DNA of 61,346 bases, the filler included, from Sphacelaria rigidula (lineage: Eukaryota): NCBI GenBank assembly GCA_964200075.2. It is 8 parts of 8 records of this genome, joined end to end, with 100 filler letters (N's around TTAATTAATTAA, not from the genome) between each part and the next. Parts side by side here need not be neighbours in the genome. Positions count along the whole stretch, not along the records: positions 15,363 to 22,943 come from CAXNAA020014233.1; 7 more parts are not named here. The stretch is one strand, 5' to 3'. The position numbers and the translations under genes were made by a program. The notes below the pieces were generated by a model. That model saw only the letters and a program-made list of their open reading frames with translations. It was not told the origin of the DNA and did no database searches. Shown in pieces: positions 5,846 through 50,485 of the stretch; positions within the stretch are counted from its first letter, which is position 1; every line of letters starts with the position of its first letter.

Positions 5846-6010
5846 ATGCTCCGTCAGTTCCCGCTGATCGTCTATACTCGTGCGCGCTCCGGCAATCAAT
5901 TCGAAGATGACTGTCTTCTTGTGCACGCTCTGACGATCCATTCGAAGATAACCGTCTACATGTGCGTGCTCCGTCAGTCAATTCGAAGATGGCCGTCTAC
6001 CTGTGCGCGT
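5846..6010. repeat. Minisatellite, ~40-bp unit, about 4 copies
   Basis: Recurring gctccgtcagtcaattcgaagatg.ccgtcta.tgtgcg. Confidence 0.8.
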
Positions 6011-6326
6011 TATGACCGTCCCGGGGGCAGGGCTACATTCTTCTGGTCTTGAGAGCCCATAGGTTCCACACATTCCTTTGCCGAGATTTACACCGGAAAT
6101 AATCGGAGGAAAGTTGTTGGTTTGTAATGAACGACTCGTGTGTTTATCGTGGAGACTATGCAAATTGTTAACATACAAGCCGGACATCGAATGCATGAAC
6201 GAGACAGTTGTATAAACCATATATATATATATATATACATGCTTGCACCATACAGCGAACAAGCAGGATTTGATTGCACACGGGAAAATGGGCGAGGACG
6301 AAGACTCAAGATGTCAAGACCATGCT

Positions 6327-6690
6327 TGTTCGAACAGGTTGACAGGGGAGCGAGGATTTTCCATGCGTTTTCGAACAGGTTGACAGGGGGCCAGGAGTTT
6401 CCCACGCGTGTTCGAACAGGTTGCCATGGATCCAGGACTTCCCATGTGTTTCGAACAGGTTGACAGGAGGCCAGGAGTTTCCCATGCGTGTCCGAACAGG
6501 TTGCCATGGGTCCAAGATTTTCCATGTATTTTCGAACAGGTTGACAAGGGGGCCAAGATTTTCCCATGCGTGTTCGAACAGGTTGACAGGCATCCAGGGA
6601 TGCCTATGCTGTCCGAACAGGTTGACAGGGGGCCAGGGTTTTTCCATGTATCTTCGAACAGGTTGACATGGACCCAGAGTTCCCTTGGGA
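6327..6690. repeat. Minisatellite, ~41-bp unit, about 9 copies
   Basis: Recurring ttcgaacaggttg(a/c)caggggg/atgg..ccaggagtttcccatgcgtg; explains the repetitive spurious ORFs in several frames. Confidence 0.95.
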
Positions 6691-15510: not shown

Positions 15511-17763
15511 CGTTAGTTATTTGACCATTGACCACGCATCCGCTGCCAGACGAAGCACATGGAGCTGGGGAGAGATGTCTGAGAAGAGGTCTGAGTTGGA
15601 GTAATGTTATTTGGGTGCGTCGGTGCGTCGGTGTGTGCCTGTGATGGCATTTTTTCACTGACTGACTTGATTTGTTTTGGTGCGTGCTCCCGCGTACATG
15701 CGTTCGACATTGAAGTCTTGCCACATGCTTTTTCACGCGCCAACCTGTAACAACCCGTGTTTCTGGTCTGGTTTGAACATGGGTCAGTTGACACGTGTGG
15801 GATGTGTGCAGTTTGTATATTCACCTGAATGTGTTTTTTGTTCGCCTAGACGGTAGTTTATCGTTGCGTTTCGCCGTTGCACTTCATGACCAGCTTGCGG
15901 AAGGTTGCGCGAATGGTGGTTGCGGAAAGCACCGTTTTTTCGCGCGTATGAATGTACAAAGAATAATAACACCCGTCTGCAAAGGAAGGGAACACTGCTA
16001 TCAGAGCAGGCCGAGAATCGATGTCCTGCGTCCCGATGCAGCGAAAAGAGCTGCAGCCTTTTGGTGCACACGTGACACCCACAGGGGCATATAGATGAAG
16101 GAACTGAAAATCGATTGTAATATTTTTTTCTCGTCAAATCCTTGACGGCGAGGGTAGGTCATCTGGATCAGGCAGTGATTCTCCGAGTGAAAGTGATGCC
16201 GATTTAACAGATGACCTGACCTGAGGTGGTCACACGCTTGACAAACGGCTACATCCCATACCACTCCAAGACTCTTCCAATACACCAACTTGCACCCGCG
16301 GCTGCCCCTTCCTCGCGCTCTCCGTCACAATCAAAACAGTGTCTCCACCCTCGCCCATCCCAAAAAAACTCCCCCTCGACTTGCGCGCGCTGCCGGGCGC
16401 TCTCCGTAGGTGGCGACCGTTGCCTGCCTTGCGCTCTTTACCTCCTTGCCCGCGCTCGGAAGGTGTTTACCCGTCGCACCATAATGTTTTAATTCTATCT
16501 CGAGACAGCGGCGATTTGTACGTTTTGACGCGAACAACATCCGTGACAGACGTGTCCATTGATATTGTGCAAATCTCGTACTTCGAGAGGAATGACTTCA
16601 CCAACTGCTGGTGGATCGGCACAAGCGAAGGAACTAGGTTTTTCCCTTGCCTGTCTTGACATCAACCTCTTCGTCACCCACCGCAGAATCCGCGTACTGT
16701 TCTAGAGCATTCCTCAAACATGTATCCCTACCAAAAAGCGATAAGAGCCCACACGTAATCTCATCTTTCATTCTTGCGTCGAGAAGACTTTTTGGGCGTA
16801 GGTGACAGTTATGGGGGTGATTGGGGCCCGATTTTGGGCACTAAATACCTGGAAAATGGACCGACCAACTCCACAGTCGGTTGGATGCAGAAGAAATGAA
16901 ACCTAAATGAGCCAATCGGTATCAATCACAAGTACACGCGTCACTCCAAATGACGACGGCGCTCATGCAAAATGTACTATTGCAACAATATATTCTAGAA
17001 CAAACCTGTGACTGGCGTTGCTGTACACCTGTACACAGGGTTACAACAACTGGAGGATAGAAGCTGCTGCTCGTGTTGTTACCGTGCCCCTCTTGTTGCA
17101 GTATGTTGTTGTGCTTATCTTTCAACTCTATTTCCTCGGCAACGAAGCAGAGGATTGGACTGCAGTTTGATGCATGCGCTTCCCACACACCAGAACTATT
17201 AAGTGTTGAAAGCAGGTTTCCGTAACGCGTGCCGCGGAGGCCGCAGCACTTCGCAAACCGCTGCACCAAACACAGAATGTACTGAAAATGCGTTTCCTAC
17301 AACGTTCTGAGGCTTTTCGGATCCGCTGTGGCAAATTGGGCAAATCCGCTTACGGCGCTGAAAAGGTCTAGTGTGTGTGCGGAGGGCTGTGAAGTTCCAG
17401 AGGCCGCTGTGCTTCTTGTCTCGAGATAATTGCGATGACAAAATTACATCTGTCGCATATAAAACCTAGGTAACTTTGGATGGAGAGTCTGTTATGCTCG
17501 GCACAGGTTCGGCACAGGTCCGAACAGTCCATGACGTCTTCAATACGTCTTCAATATCCCTCCGCATTCATTTTATTTTTTGTGGGAAACGGAGTTTTGG
17601 CCGGTGAGGCCTTGATTCACCCCCATACCACTGTTTCGACTCGATTCTCCACTCGTAGCGAGAGTGGCCGTGGGGCCGCCAACCGGCTGCTGTGCGGTTT
17701 TGTATGGGACATGATGTGCAGACCAATGATTGCGCTCTCCCGCCTGTACGGCGGCTGCCCGCG

Positions 17764-17948
17764 GCCGTACGCAGTGCAGCAGGGCCGCGTGTATGTCTTG
17801 TGCGAAACAGGCCGTTCGGGGTTCTCTTCAAACCGACCGGACCGATTCCACGTATCTCACTGGCGATTTTTCCATGAGGAGTTTCCATGAGGAAGATCCC
17901 GGACACTTGACAAATATATTTTCCCCTTGCTGATTTTTGACCGATTCG
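17764..17948 (+). repeat. ~180-bp dispersed repeat, left inverted copy flanking the TPR exon array
   Basis: cagcagggc..tgtgcg..ggggttctcttc..cgaccggac..catgaggaag..ttgaccgattcg aligns with the reverse complement of 20379-20552 and with about 50335-50485. Confidence 0.75.
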
Positions 17949-17965
17949 TATGACCACTATCGCAG

Positions 17966-18091
17966 GGCAAGTACGCCGAAGCGGTGCCACTCTACGAGCG
18001 GTGCCAGGCGATGCAAGAGAAGGCTCTTGGCCCGGAGCACCCGAGCTTGGCGGCAACGCTCCACAACCGTGCGCGGTTGTTGCAAGCTCAG
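17966..18091 (+). CDS. TPR exon 1 (42-aa kinesin-light-chain/NB-ARC-TPR-type repeat)
   Basis: cgcag|GGCAAG...GCTCAG|gtgag; 126 nt; GKYAEAVPLYERCQAMQEKALGPEHPSLAATLHNRARLLQAQ. Confidence 0.9.
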
Positions 18092-18365
18092 GTGAGAGCC
18101 GATGGAGCGTTGTCGTAGTCGTTTTCTGTGTGGAAAACATCGTGTGGTTATTGCCGTCGGTCGCTTGTCCTTTGGGCCAATGTTGACTGAGAAGGTGAGT
18201 GCAAAGCCACCCCGTCCTACCTACCAGGCGTGGAGATCGAACATCGTGCCCTCTCGTGCACACATCGCTCGCTCGAGGGTGGGGTGAGGACGCGAGCGTC
18301 TTGCTACCGTCGCAGGATCGCCCTTGACTGTTTTGAGCTGCCTCTGCGTGTATACTTTATTGCAG

Positions 18366-18491
18366 GGCAAGTACGCCGAAGCTGAGCCACTCTATGAGCG
18401 GTGCCAGGCGATACTGGAGAAAGTTCTTGCTCCGGAGCATCCTGATTTGGCTGTAACACTGGGCAGCCGTGCGCGCTTGTTTCAAGCTCAG
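18366..18491 (+). CDS. TPR exon 2
   Basis: tgcag|...|gtgag; GKYAEAEPLYERCQAILEKVLAPEHPDLAVTLGSRARLFQAQ. Confidence 0.9.
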
Positions 18492-18785
18492 GTGAGAGCC
18501 GATGGAACTTTCTCGTTGTAGGGTGTCGACGTGTGAACGGCATTTTGTGGGGTTGAATATTATTCGCTGGCCCTGTGGGCCAACGTAGACTGAGCGGGTG
18601 ACTGCGACGAAGCGTATCCGTGGTACCTCCGAGCCGTGGAAATCGGGCATGGTACCCTTGGCCCTGTACACACATCACTCGCCGGTTGTAGACCTGGGCA
18701 GGGTGGTGACCCAAGCGCCTCGCCATTGTTGTAGGTCCGCCGTTGACTGTCATGAGATGCTTCTGCACCATTCATTACATTGCAG

Positions 18786-18911
18786 GGCAAGTACGCCGAG
18801 GCCAAGGCACTCTTCGAGCGTTGCCAGGCAATGCAGGAGAAAGTTCTCGGCCCTGAACACCCAAACTTGGCGAAAACACTCAACTACCATGCGGAGTTGT
18901 TACAAGCTCAG
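18786..18911 (+). CDS. TPR exon 3
   Basis: tgcag|...|gtaag; GKYAEAKALFERCQAMQEKVLGPEHPNLAKTLNYHAELLQAQ. Confidence 0.9.
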
Positions 18912-19204
18912 GTAAGAGCCGAAGGAGCTTTGTCGTTGCTGTGTGTCGACGTTTGAACAATATCGTGTGGTATTGGATGTTGCTTGCTAGTCAGCGGGCC
19001 AACGGTGGCTGAGAGGGTCAGTTCGGCGATGTCAACCCGTGGTACCTTTGAGTAGTGGAGATTGGGCGTAGTACCCTCGGCCCTGCACATACGCTGCTCG
19101 CCGGATGTACACTTGGGTCGCGCGGTGGCACGAGTGTCTCACCGCCGTTGTAGGTCGGACGTCGACTGTTATAGGCTTCTTCTGCGTCGTGTATTACATT
19201 TCAG

Positions 19205-19330
19205 GGCAAGTACGCCGGGGCGGAGCGACTCTACAAGCGGTGCCAGGCGATACAAGAGAAAGTTCTCGGCCTTGGGCACCCGAGTTTGGCCTCCACGCTC
19301 CACAACCGTGCAGGGTTGTTGCAAGCTCAG
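19205..19330 (+). CDS. TPR exon 4
   Basis: ttcag|...|gtgag; GKYAGAERLYKRCQAIQEKVLGLGHPSLASTLHNRAGLLQAQ. Confidence 0.9.
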
Positions 19331-20378
19331 GTGAGAGCTGATGAGACTTTGTCGTATCACGTCGTGTGTTGAGGTGTGGATATCTTGTAGTGTCGATGTC
19401 GTTCGCCGGCCCTGTGTGCCAATGTTGACTGAGGGGGTGAGTGCGGTGAGGCCAAGCTGTGTACCTCCGATCCACGTAGATGGGGCATAATATACTTGGG
19501 CCTGTAAATATATCGCGCGTTGGCTGCACACTTGTGTTAGACGGTAGCGAGAGCTCCCTTCGGCTGGCGCAAGGCTCACCGTTACTGAGTTCGGTGCTCC
19601 CACGCCGTCGACGAATTTCAGAGAAGCGGCCGTCCAATGAAGGCTTCAGCGTGTCACAAGAAAGCATTGTTGTCAGCAGTGCAAACGGCGATGAGGTTGT
19701 CTTTCCGGCACCGGGTTGTGACTTTGCCGTGTCATTGCTTTTCAATATGACGGACGTGGTTAACTAATTTTCAATTTAAAGGGCCGGGTTGCATTCGAAA
19801 TGGTCATGCTCCACAGCGTGAAGTATGTTGAGGTTAAAGGGGCGCACCTCGTCGAAAGAAGGGGCTCCACATCAGGACAGACCCTTGGCAACACAGGCGA
19901 CGCCCATGGCTGAAGTACCCGGATGGCAAAGGGTTCATGTCACTGGGGAGCGACCACGCGCTTCATATACGTGAAAAATGCAGATTGCTCTCCGTCGTGC
20001 TCGTTTCATGTGATCTCAAAGCCATTTATTTGCTTGATGAGACCATGTTTTTGTTCGGGTTTGCTTTTCGTTTCCACTTGTTTCTCCGTTTTTTCTCAAG
20101 CGAGCGCTTCGTTTTGTTCCACTTGGGTACGTTTATGTTGAGACCACGGCTGCATCCCTCAGGAATCAATCAATGTACAAGACTAGTCACTCCAGCGGAT
20201 CGAATGAATCAGAACTGTATCATTGCGTTTTCGGGTGGCTGGCGTGTTCTTGGGCGGTCATGGTCCAAAGGTTTACCCTTGAAGATTCTGTGAGGCTCAG
20301 GCCTGTCCCACGATGGACAGACTGTATTGTATGTCAGTACCACACGCACACAAGATACACACACATTTTTAAGACGAG

Positions 20379-20552
20379 CGAACTGCTCAAAGTAGATATG
20401 GGAAGAAAGTTCAAAAGATGCCCCGACCCTTCCTGATGAAGAATCCAACAAGCCGGTCAGAAACGAAGGATCTGTCCGGTCGATCAGAAGAGAACCCCAG
20501 AAAGCCTTCTGCGCACATGATATGCACACTGCCCTGCTGTCTTGCTCACGGC
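20379..20552 (-). repeat. ~180-bp dispersed repeat, right inverted copy flanking the TPR exon array
   Basis: Reverse complement reads cagcagggcagtgtgcatatcatgtgcgcagaaggctttctggggttctcttctgatcgaccggacagat..catcaggaag.., matching 17764-17948. Confidence 0.75.
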
Positions 20553-25220: not shown

Positions 25221-26730
25221 TCACCTCTGCCCCTTCAGCTTGTATATGATCAAACGCGCCAAACACCCGGACACCACTACCGACGAATCATATAGCCATC
25301 CCGTATCCACACCACTACTGCTACTACTAGAGCTACTACTAACACCTACGCTGCTCGAACCACTTGAACAGGTAACCTGTTCCCTACGATCACTTACCCA
25401 AGTGCCACAGTGCGCTGAAAAATGGGCTGCCGGCTCTACCTTTATTCCTGCCCCTGTCCTTGCCTCCGGAGATACCTGAGCATCAGCTCCCGAGGGTACC
25501 TGAGCCGAGGGCAACGGTAGCGTTGTACCACCCCGTCTGGTACGTTGACACACACAACGGCGAGTGCCAACAACGGCACATGAACCAGAAGCCGAGCACC
25601 CGGCACGTGTGCATCCTATTCCATGTACGTCAGCAACAAAGCTTCCGCCAACGTCCGTCGGGCGACGGCTGGTGGGGTCCACCATAATGTTGAGTTTCGC
25701 GGCGTTGTGCACTGTACCTGCGTTGTGTGTAATATTATGCTGTCGGCAACACTGTGCCTCATCAAGGTTGTGTCCCTTGGAGGCACATGGCTCGGAGTAT
25801 CCCTTCTTGCCGGAATTGACATGCTTTGTGCCAACAATTCCCGCCTCGACATGCTCGGAGAAGTACTTCGCCTCCTTGTTCCTCGTCTCACCATACCATG
25901 GGTGCTTGAGGCAGGCCTCGTGATAGCACCTTCTCTTCACATTCACCATTCCCGCCCTGGCGTGCTCGAAGCAGAACTCTCTCTTCTTGCTTCCCGCTAC
26001 ACCATACGACGGATACTTGAAGCAGCCTTCGTCGCTGTACTTCTTGTTCCCCACATGTGCCATCCCCTCCCTGGCGTGCGCGGAGCAGAGCACCGCCTTC
26101 TTGCTTCCTGCTACACTATACGACGGATGCTTGAGGCAACCCTCGTCGCCGCACCTCTTGCTCACCACATTTATCATTCCCGCCGCGGCGTGCTCGAAGC
26201 AGAACTCCGTCTTCTTGCTTCCTGCTACACCAAATGATGGACGCTTGAGGCAGCGCTTCTCGCCGCATCTCTTGCCCACCACATTTATCATTCCCGCCCT
26301 GGCGTGCTCGGAGCAGAGCACCGCCTCCTTCCTTCCTGCTTCACCATACGATGGATGCTTGGGGGCAACCCTCGTCGCCGCACCTATTGCTCTTCACATT
26401 CACCATTCCCACCCTGGCGTGCTCGGAGCAGAACACCGCCTTCTTGCTTCCTGCTACACCAAATGATGGACGCTTGAGGCAGCGCTCGTCGCCGCATCTC
26501 TTGCCCGCCACAGTTACCATTCCCGCTGCGGCGTGCGCGGAGCAGAACACCGCCTCCTTGCTTCCTGCTTTACCATACGATGGACGCTGGAGGCAACCCT
26601 CGTCGCCGCACCTCTTGCTCACCACATTCACCATTCCCGCCCTGGCGTGCTCGGAGCAGAACTCCGCTTCGTAGCCTATTCACTCGTGCGATAACCGGTT
26701 GAAGCAGCCCTCGTTGATGCAATTTCTCTG
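25221..26730 (-). pseudogene. EsV-1-7-domain repeat protein (IMM-like family), intronless, frameshifted
   Basis: About 7-8 tandem 120-nt (40-aa) units KRCGDEGCxKxPSYGVAGSKKAxFCSEHARAGMVNV. A +1 G at 26361-26365 (ttgggggcaacc vs ttgaggcaacc) splits ORFs 26341-26634 and 25221-26321; the first unit is degenerate with a stop. Confidence 0.85.
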
Positions 26731-38405: not shown

Positions 38406-38956
38406 AGCCAACAATGAGTTGCTTTATTCTATGGTTTCGCCACTTCCAGAGACAGCCACAACTTTTACACTGCCTCATGTGTGTACAACCATAGTGATCA
38501 CCGTGGGGTGATCAGTCACCTCGGGGGGTGCAGGGTCATCCTGAGATCAGGCTCTTTCTGGTACCACCCCGAGTTGTCTAGTATCGTTGGCATTATGGGG
38601 TCTCGGTAACCTGGTCTTTTCGGACCGTTCCTACCTTGCACCTTCATGCGCTGGTTCTTCATATTTATGTGGCATTAATCTCTGATATGTCACTGCAAAG
38701 AGGTATCTTCCACACTTCCCCCCCCTCTATGCGCCTCAAACCCATCAGGGCTGTGGCTGGTGGGACGAGGCGATCATCAGCTTCGTTGAGTGATAGTCAT
38801 TGTTTGAGTCACGCCACTGCTAATCGCGAAGGTAGCCCTTCCCTATACTGTGGCATTGATTGAACACCTCCAGTACATTTTACACACGCCGGACGAGCAC
38901 GAGTATGACTCGTGGCAATCGCACTCGTTGGGCTGCTCGTCGGCCGTAGAAATAAA

Positions 38957-40530
38957 TAGGGCGAACACTCGAGTCATTGCTCGTTGTGGAAAAAAATTGA
39001 TGGGGCGAGCACTCGAGTCATTGCTCGTTGCGGAAAAAAATCAACAGGGCGAGCACTCGAGTCATTGCTCGTTGTGGAAAAAATTAAGCCCTTTGGGACC
39101 GGGCCTCCAAAAACGACCAGTGAGGCTGGTTGGGAATGACGTGTCTGGCATCTGGAAAAACTATTAAGCCCTTTGGGACCCGGCCTCCAGAACGACCAAT
39201 GAGGCTGATTAGGAATGACGTGTCTGGCGTCTGGACGAAACAGTGGCATGTTGCTGAAAATCTGCGTATGTAACCGCAAGGATATGAGGAAGACCGGGAG
39301 TTTCATCCAATCTATTTTCAGATGCAGGGTGCGCTCTAGGTAATGTACATCTGATGAGCAAGCAGCATGTGTCGCCGTAGAGAGCTTTCAACAGGATGCG
39401 GCGTCCGGCGGGCCACCCGCCACTTGTGACTTTGGATGATACTATTGTCCCTATCACCTTGCCACACGGCTCTTTGTGGTCGGAGTGGGCCGCCATTTCC
39501 CAGTTTGTTGCATGCGACAAATTCTCTTCGAAGGGTATGGGCGCAGCGGCGCACATACATATAGTACAGTACAGTGCAGTACCCCCCTTCGACTGCAGCA
39601 GCAACTGCCGCTGCATACTCCCTTGCACGTTCTGGGCAGTTCTCAGCGACGGAGATCAACTGCCTATACACAGCTTGTTCATCCCCGCCCGCTACATACA
39701 TGTTCACAGTTCTGCAAGTCATCGGCGGAGGGATATGCAGAATTCATGACGATAGCTCCTCTTGTCTTTCCACGGCCCACCTGGGTTTAGTGCCTCGTGG
39801 AAATGACCACATTGTGGCATGTACGCTCCTTCCCGATTTTTCCCACTTCACCCTATGTTAGTGTGAGTACTACGTTTAGTATAGGCTAGCGACCCCAAAA
39901 AACTTCCGGGGAATCCCGGGAGCGCTATACTGAATGCAAGTAATACGATAAGCCATGCTCCGAGCATCCTGGCTTTGGAAACCTGGGAAGACTTATCTGG
40001 GCCAGGGATAGGGCCCCAACACGATCTTTGCAGTGACATCACACTCGGCAACAGAACCCGCGCTGGTCGTTCGGATGTGGTCGATAAATTTCGCCTCGCC
40101 GGGTTTGAGCAGGTGGCTCCCTGACATATTTTTTTATTATTTCACCAACACATGGTCAACCCCGTGTTATAGTGGGGGGGTCGATCCCAAAAGGGTTAAT
40201 AGGGCGAGTACTCGAGTCATTGCTCGTTGTGGATAAAAAAATGATAGGGTGAGCACTCGAGTCATTGCTCGTTGTGGAAACAAAGTTATAGGGCGAGCAC
40301 TTGAGTCATTGCTCGTTGCGAAAAAAAATAATAGGGCGAGCACTCAAGTCATTGCTCATTGTGGAAAAAAATAATAGGGCAAGCACTCGAGTCATTGCTC
40401 GATAAAACAAAAGTGATGACTCGAGCACACGAGTCATTGCTCGTTGTAAAAAGAGGTAACGGCGCGAGCACACGAGTCATTGCTCGTTAAAAACAAAGTA
40501 ATGACTCGAGCACACGAGTCATGCTCGATG
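38957..40530. repeat. About 11 copies of agggcgagcactcgagtcattgctcgttgtggaaaaaa (3 left and 8 right of the piggyBac-like insert)
   Basis: Direct count; each unit holds the hairpin cgagca-ctcgagtcat-tgctcg. Confidence 0.9.
39088..40195. mobile_element. piggyBac-like non-autonomous element
   Basis: TTAA at 39084-39087 and 40196-40199; ends gccctttgggacc / (reverse complement) cccttttgggatc; removing it restores a repeat unit (aaaaattaatagggcgag). Confidence 0.8.
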
Positions 40531-41053
40531 TGTTTTCAAAAAACATCCACGAGGGCACTCGTTTCGACGAGTAATGACGAGTGCGACGGGTGAAATTGTA
40601 GCTACCTGTGGTCATAAACAGTGCATGCATTGCAAAACCCTTTCATTTCGATATTTTCTGTCATGTAACTGTGTCATGTGTGACATATTTCCATTAGATG
40701 CATTTGCACTTCAGTGCTGGTTGCATCTGCCGGTTATACATGACTGGGCACTGGGACGCTGTTCGGTCTAAGGGCGCCTGGGTTATTTATGCCCGGGTTC
40801 TGGGATGCTTTCGGTTCCGCTGACACCGGAGTAGGACGAAGTCCTCGCGTTAGTAACAAAGCGGTGGATACGGTGTTTTTATCCTGTGAGCATTGTGCTC
40901 CCTCGGCGGAACATCGTCAAAATGAGCCTTGCTTCTTGTCAGCAACTACCCTCATTGCTGAGAGGCCATCTGCCTTGGGAAGTTCTACCCCCGTCACCAC
41001 TGACACGTCAAATGTTATTCCGTTCATGCCTGTACTGTTCTAACGTCGTTTTA

Positions 41054-50334: not shown

Positions 50335-50485
50335 AGGGTTTGTGCCATGTGCGCAGTGGGCCTTCTCGGTTCTCTTCGAACCGACCGGACGCACCCTTTG
50401 TTCCTGACTGGCTAGCTTGATTTCCCGTCAAGAGCCGGGACACCTTGGTGGAATTTTTTCTCATATTTTTAGTGAGCGACTAGTG
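50335..50485 (+). repeat. Third, diverged copy of the repeat that flanks the TPR array
   Basis: atgtgcgcagtgggccttctcggttctcttcgaaccgaccggac..ccgggacacctt. Confidence 0.65.

Follow-up and report, generated by a model that had tools for sequence, protein, structure and literature searches.

Four expressed TPR exons of Sphacelaria rigidula, most probably the 3' end of an ordinary NB-ARC-TPR gene, and the fossil exon carried in their repeat unit

The window analysed here is a 61,346-nt stretch of Sphacelaria rigidula DNA made up of eight unrelated contigs separated by N spacers, and the array under study sits on one of them, G000:C14233 (7,581 bp, henceforth C14233). It comprises four 126-nt exons, open in frame 0, preceded by AG and followed by GT and spaced 400, 420 and 419 nt apart, just as the first-pass annotation had described them (Table 1). 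Pairwise identity among the four is 75–86%; three pass the Pfam cut-off for TPR_12 and three that for TPR_10, every exon passing at least one. The homology claimed for the introns was equally borne out, since the three introns (274, 294 and 293 nt) and the stretch after exon 4 are 64–72% identical pairwise, with scores of 185–335 per intron pair versus a maximum of 103.5 in shuffled sequences (200 per pair). A TPR domain encoded by 42-aa, phase-0 exons and inactivated TPR exons lying in introns on the coding strand (see below) are thus both found in this array.

Table 1. Coordinates, in the window, of the features on contig C14233.
Feature	Position	Strand	Remarks
Whole contig G000:C14233	15363..22943	.	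Both ends within high-copy repeat
Repeat of high copy number before exon 1, probably part of a transposon	16805..17634	.	
TPR exon 1	17966..18091	+	42 aa, phase 0-0
Fossil TPR exon, intron 1	18194..18299	+	Shortened to 106 nt; placed by consensus alignment; HMM alone 0.3 bits
TPR exon 2	18366..18491	+	Groups with third-from-last exons of C3, C710, C8765
Fossil TPR exon, intron 2	18597..18718	+	LRAIEIG class, 122 nt, frameshifted, splice sites lost; 21.0 bits, E 7.7e-8
TPR exon 3	18786..18911	+	Clusters with the penultimate exons of C3, C710, C8765; joined to exon 4 by splicing
Fossil TPR exon, intron 3	19016..19137	+	Stop at codon 12; 11.5 bits
TPR exon 4, last repeat exon	19205..19330	+	RNA contig departs from the genome sequence here
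Start of the family's long last intron	19331..20365	+	Homology to DNA past the last repeat exon in paralogues
Fossil TPR exon after exon 4	19436..19556	+	Placed by alignment to family intron consensus
High-copy repeat, 3' end of C14233	22153..22943	+	C9454 begins in the same repeat, same strand

Of 42 long ORFs in the window, 28 were covered by the Pfam scan, which gave a single match, on another contig. Elsewhere in the window, positions 25224–26393 (minus strand) hold an open frame of 390 aa in which tandem 114-nt repeats encode EsV-1-7 cysteine-rich motifs (PF19114, E 4.9e-57); brown algae are known for an expansion of this family. Other contigs carry tandem arrays at 95–639 (88-nt unit), 5880–6684 (41 nt) and 38950–40531 (43–44 nt).

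DNA depth on C14233 exceeds 10^5 at the ends compared to about 35 across its unique parts, and the high-copy repeat is the likely cause of the assembly breaks there. A copy of the repeat upstream of exon 1 (76–86% identical) was found inside an array intron of another family contig, C5394. A dispersed repeat brackets the array with inverted copies (73%) at 17764–17864 and 20452–20552, and recurs at 50346–50466. On the 3' side, the blocks 19331–19683, 20081–20182 and 20228–20365 match the DNA that follows the array in C710, C8765 and/or C3 (67–76%). On the 5' side, the DNA next to exon 1 is no more similar to the unit intron than chance (114 of 200 shuffles score equally high), and it was never matched by a leave-one-out profile of the family's first intron that picked up nine of ten true first introns with E values no worse than 3.3e-9. 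Because it resembles neither intron type, the native intron before exon 1 seems to have been replaced; the silence of the first-intron profile also led us to reject the idea that exon 1 is the first repeat exon of the family. Searches of the contig located no NB-ARC exon, pre-array exon or terminal exon, in agreement with the first-pass annotation.

That annotation had proposed a gene-less reservoir of interchangeable modules and had suggested mapping RNA to the locus. The RNA evidence consists of assembled contigs from one study, in runs labelled RNA by guess, none being recorded as such; three of the four guessed-RNA runs and one of the five main DNA or unlabelled runs were compared, and parts of C14233 without run coverage were not counted as evidence. 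Contigs of runs X6 (record 12) and X9 (record 27) align to 18783–18907 and then to 19201–19331 with no differences, the 4-nt shift at the join being the TCAG common to both junctions, and DNA run X3 reads straight through the intron between exons 3 and 4. Exon 3 is spliced exactly to exon 4, in at least two of the three RNA-type runs among the matches listed, and the transcript continues past the array: the X9 contig is 1,503 nt long and extends 1,238 nt beyond exon 4. Exon 1 is matched without differences by RNA-type contigs of X6 and X7 that leave the genome sequence at the donor, and exon 2 is likewise covered, again without differences, by RNA-type pieces ending at its donor; among the matches listed, the junction on the 5' side of exon 1 does not appear. 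The array is spliced and expressed. A join of exon 1 to exon 4 was set aside: it appears in a single X6 contig, with a side of only 23 nt and a depth far above that of the locus, and may derive from paralogues. Among database proteins, 85 of 91 candidates could be scored for the exact exon 3; the best identity was 76% and none came from this locus, a search that bears no information on expression. The exact pattern of exon plus splice sites gave no match in metagenome contigs.

The closest proteins to the four exons are brown-algal NB-ARC-TPR proteins. P0005, a protein that its source assigns to Sphacelaria rigidula, has a Pfam NB-ARC match of 58 bits and is encoded, at 98–100% identity, by exons on contig C1255. 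A DNA search gave 220 matches, and in the 38 contigs examined we mapped at least 214 repeat exons on 23 contigs, a lower bound for the family; of these 214, 203 are intact and not one has the opposite orientation. Family members combine a helical N-terminus with NB-ARC, as many as 25 exons of one repeat each and a terminal capping exon. C3 carries a whole gene of about 51 kb, with NB-ARC exons (53312–50499), a 24.7-kb intron, 25 repeat exons (all intact, with a recent internal three-exon duplication), a 12,641-bp intron and the terminal exon. Other loci are less regular. C12236 holds a family pseudogene (none of its three exons intact); at C1123:9492–10265 an NB-ARC-TPR array has collapsed into an N gap flanked on either side by the same 127 nt; and the TPR genes on C7805 and C4479 combine intact 126-nt exons of several classes, live LRAIEIG-like ones among them, with unrelated introns of roughly 110–380 nt. 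These two are the un-homogenised form of the family.

The spacing of these genes bears on what C14233 could be expected to contain. The distance from the pre-array exon to the first repeat is 3,440–24,672 bp in all seven contigs that have both, and C14233 offers 2,603 bp; NB-ARC lies upstream on the same strand in seven paralogous contigs, always beyond that distance. Terminal exons lie 1,109–12,641 bp downstream of the array in six contigs, and in four of these the distance (1.1–2.9 kb) is shorter than the 3,613 bp available on C14233; the tail of C14233, however, is homologous to the long last intron of the C3, C710 and C8765 group. Head and terminal exon are both missing from eleven of the 23 array contigs; among contigs without arrays, eight carry NB-ARC heads (three of the eight read only to 10 kb) and six carry terminal exons. 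Orphaned arrays are the normal state in this assembly, and are to be expected wherever contigs are short.

Candidates for the missing parts could be named. C9454, which has an open terminal exon at 1878, starts in the repeat where C14233 ends and on the same strand; a high-copy repeat begins 1,204 nt past the terminal acceptor, so that an RNA tail of 1,239 nt would stop after 35 nt of that repeat, as expected of a 31-mer contig. Only one of the 12 terminal exons examined fits in this way. The intron pieces of C9454 overlap the tails of both C710 and C8765 at 66–72%, and it therefore continues neither of them. By elimination and from the length of the tail, the terminal exon of the C14233 gene is probably the one on C9454. 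At the other end, C7864 (16 exons) finishes in the repeat where C14233 begins, in a compatible orientation, and supplies the best matches to introns 1–3; upstream repeats of the gene may lie there, a link that is only a candidate because many contig ends fall in this same repeat. In the runs and contigs compared, neither C9454 nor any NB-ARC head is joined directly to C14233 by a read or contig.

If the array were a store of cassettes, copies of its exons might be sought inside complete genes, as the first-pass annotation had advised. None was identical to any C14233 exon among the 214 exons on 23 contigs (best 87–89%), and the only identical pair among them, exons 10 and 16 of C3, shows that recent copying occurs within a gene. 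In a FastTree phylogeny, exons 2 and 3 cluster with the exons at the same position in C3, C710 and C8765 (support 0.91 and 0.86, respectively). Exon 4 does not cluster with the last exons of paralogues; exons 1 and 4 group weakly with exons of C7864, and some turnover has therefore occurred. Exon order was also compared with a second DNA sample, by contigs, which drop rare variants, and was the same over 18481–19337 (the end of exon 2, and exons 3 and 4). By pairwise counts, used here in place of a codon model, the four exons have a dN/dS of 0.27 and the 158 nearest pairs one of 0.38, and the per-site pN/pS reaches 0.9–1.1 at positions 8, 27, 30 and 37 with no site clearly above 1. The C14233 exons thus appear to be under purifying selection. 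Repeat positions 27, 30, 34, 37 and 41 show helical spacing, and by analogy with kinesin light chain structures they would line the binding groove.

The introns of the array hold remnants of a further TPR exon, which the first-pass annotation had not noticed and which were first detected by tblastn with proteins of other species. A 293-nt consensus of 110 family introns contains an LRAIEIG-class TPR from base 105, with a stop and a frameshift, that scores 21.4 bits against a custom HMM built from 116 repeats of other species; with this HMM, 22 of 163 single introns reach 10 bits in the sense direction, compared to none of the 163 antisense or shuffled. Pfam alone misses the fossil, including the best copy on C14233 (the first 29 codons of 18597..18718 went undetected), and its detection relies on the custom HMM with these controls and on the alignment to C2 described below. 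The fossil region can be aligned in 179 of 211 introns. Of these, 103 have the stop at codon 12 and 15 keep the ancestral codon; 82 share a length of 122 nt, and eight are open and in frame by length. Identity to the consensus is flat across codon positions in the fossil (0.76/0.78/0.75) versus 0.87/0.88/0.75 in live exons, a pattern that suggests neutral decay.

A template for this arrangement survives in a single-copy pseudogene on C2 (54439–54745), in which a short intron is followed by an LRAIEIG exon with an acceptor and without a donor, then by 64 nt and an ERCQA exon. The repeat unit aligns to it over 499 nt (64%, E 3e-44), and the intron alone scores 175 versus a maximum of 85 in 1,000 shuffles. 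The decayed gene to which it belongs (C2:54069–55500) has mixed TPR exon classes and short introns, with no NB-ARC found in the 8 kb upstream. Since this pseudogene keeps the ancestral two-exon template, the donor was probably lost first and the 419-nt unit amplified later, as DNA. Mild support for an ancestral LRAIEIG-then-ERCQA pair comes from exon-class order in other species, where three of nine LRAIEIG-like units directly precede an ER(C/S)QA unit and two more precede near forms (scored by eye). The similarity of introns A and B, considered under the idea that the fossil lost its polypyrimidine tract from an intron copy, is weak (16 of 2,000 shuffles equal it).

We propose the following order of events. 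In an ancestral pair, an exon of the LRAIEIG class followed by one of the ERCQA class, the first exon would have lost its donor; the live exon and the intron holding the dead one (about 419 nt) would then have multiplied by tandem duplication, probably through unequal crossing-over. Judged from sequence comparison, then, the arrays would have grown by genomic tandem duplication after the death of the LRAIEIG exon, and most dead TPR exons would trace back to the loss of a single exon that was then copied at least 179 times, which together with neutral decay points to DNA-level duplication of exon plus intron. The phase-0 exons may, by analogy, allow repeats to be added, lost or possibly skipped in frame. 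Two further observations concern these introns. The 5' edge of the fossil resembles a strong donor in introns 1 and 4 (18192–18200 and 19433–19441) and in the family consensus, and its use would be predicted to introduce a stop. The last 150 nt of the first introns of C3, C21895, C10160, C7864, C5738, C14202, C26892 and C1255 hold an apparent second fossil TPR exon of another class, seen as a weak HMM match on C21895 and in cross-matches between the first-intron profile and live exons; several ancestral exons may therefore have been lost.

Taken together, the four exons most probably make up the 3' end of the TPR array in one gene of NB-ARC-TPR (NLR-like) type, ordinary and expressed, the rest of which lies on other contigs, with the NB-ARC head presumably further upstream. 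By analogy with the NLR/STAND model, the 42-aa repeats would stack into a solenoid that keeps the NB-ARC switch shut until a ligand binds in the groove. The first-pass annotation was right about the family, an Ectocarpus-type NB-ARC-TPR with one 42-aa repeat per exon, and it had named as fatal to its reservoir the finding of ordinary internal exons of a single gene; on this point splicing and the exon 2–3 order common to three paralogues now largely speak for such a gene, save for a physical link to an NB-ARC head. The reservoir itself, a gene-less, VLR-like set of cassettes copied or recombined into NB-ARC-TPR genes as hypothesised by Zambounis et al., found no support and seems to us very improbable. 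The lack of a head and a terminal exon on C14233, the uniform phase and homologous flanks of the exons and the within-gene copying in C3 would all suit it, but it sits badly with a spliced RNA that runs far past exon 4, with missing parts that lie at a distance in paralogues too, with purifying selection, with the absence of identical copies or of any exon on the opposite strand among the 214, with the inherited order of exons 2 and 3 and with an order unchanged in a second DNA sample. That the locus is what remains of a recently dead NB-ARC-TPR gene, still transcribed, is scarcely credible either: family pseudogenes do exist (C12236 and the C2 locus) and the flanks are rich in repeats, yet every one of the four exons is still intact and is spliced, and an open frame runs through the candidate terminal exon on C9454.

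The sequence ahead of exon 1, matching neither the unit intron nor the first-intron type, leaves room for a gene without a head, in which a transposon insertion cut off NB-ARC and the four repeats and the terminal exon are expressed from a new 5' exon; its product would be a decoy, a free sensor or a young pseudogene. Loci with TPR or LRR repeats only are mentioned in the available text of PMC3341825 and PMC11378527. Long repeat insertions are, however, common inside arrays (20 of 191 array introns exceed 450 nt, the longest reaching 3,630), eight NB-ARC heads have no array on their own contig, and C7864 ends in the very repeat in which C14233 starts, in a compatible orientation and with the best intron matches, so we regard such a TPR-only gene as unlikely. 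Distinctly unlikely, in our judgement, is a bolder reading in which the dead exon forms a standing TPR-like pool that either provides a pad of homology for unequal crossing-over or switches splicing, and/or in which the locus encodes a head-less TPR-only sensor. If it were true, receptors would diversify through a module of live and dead exons. The fossil exons, in neutral decay, offer markers with which recombination within candidate immune-receptor arrays can be dated and traced.

The C14233 gene is a further member of the family described in 2012 by Zambounis et al. (PMC3341825), who, in the available text, report that 13 of 24 Ectocarpus NB-ARC genes contain 42-aa TPR exons, that introns hold inactivated TPR exons on the coding strand, proposed to be a reservoir of excised modules for reuse, and that TPR exons show positive selection with PAML; immune function of the family is there described as unproven. 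An expansion of the family appears in the available part of a genome survey (bioRxiv 10.1101/2024.02.19.579948). The reservoir idea is repeated for LRR-only loci in the accessible portion of PMC11378527, which, citing Teng et al. 2023 (Plant J 114:246), favours alternative splicing and holds combinatorial splicing to be simpler than somatic recombination for brown-algal NB-ARC-TPR genes; the genes of Teng et al., as presented there, belong to the same family as the C14233 array. What we add is a modest detail: the repeat unit includes a dead exon, duplicated together with its live neighbour. Within the texts available, our literature searches returned no account of such a unit.

A more distant likeness is to kinesin light chain and the "Anserina putative kinesin light chain" (PDB 7ai4, 4y6c, 4y6w), which have the same 42-residue repeat length and motif (E 6e-24 and 7e-19 for whole-chain matches); the repeat alone is shared, with no kinesin link implied. 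The likeness to Ectocarpus is far closer. As far as the available text of PMC3341825 goes, both systems have 126-nt phase-0 exons of one repeat each, in a family that fuses NB-ARC to a C-terminal TPR domain, and both show inactivated intronic TPR exons that lie solely on the coding strand, local exon duplications and pseudogenes. They differ in three respects from that account: our pairwise test, unlike the PAML result, shows no site clearly above 1; in Sphacelaria one exon class has replaced the mixed array; and nearly every intron of the Sphacelaria arrays bears the same dead exon with shared lesions, so that the dead exons here are best seen as passengers of one old loss and not as separately excised cassettes.
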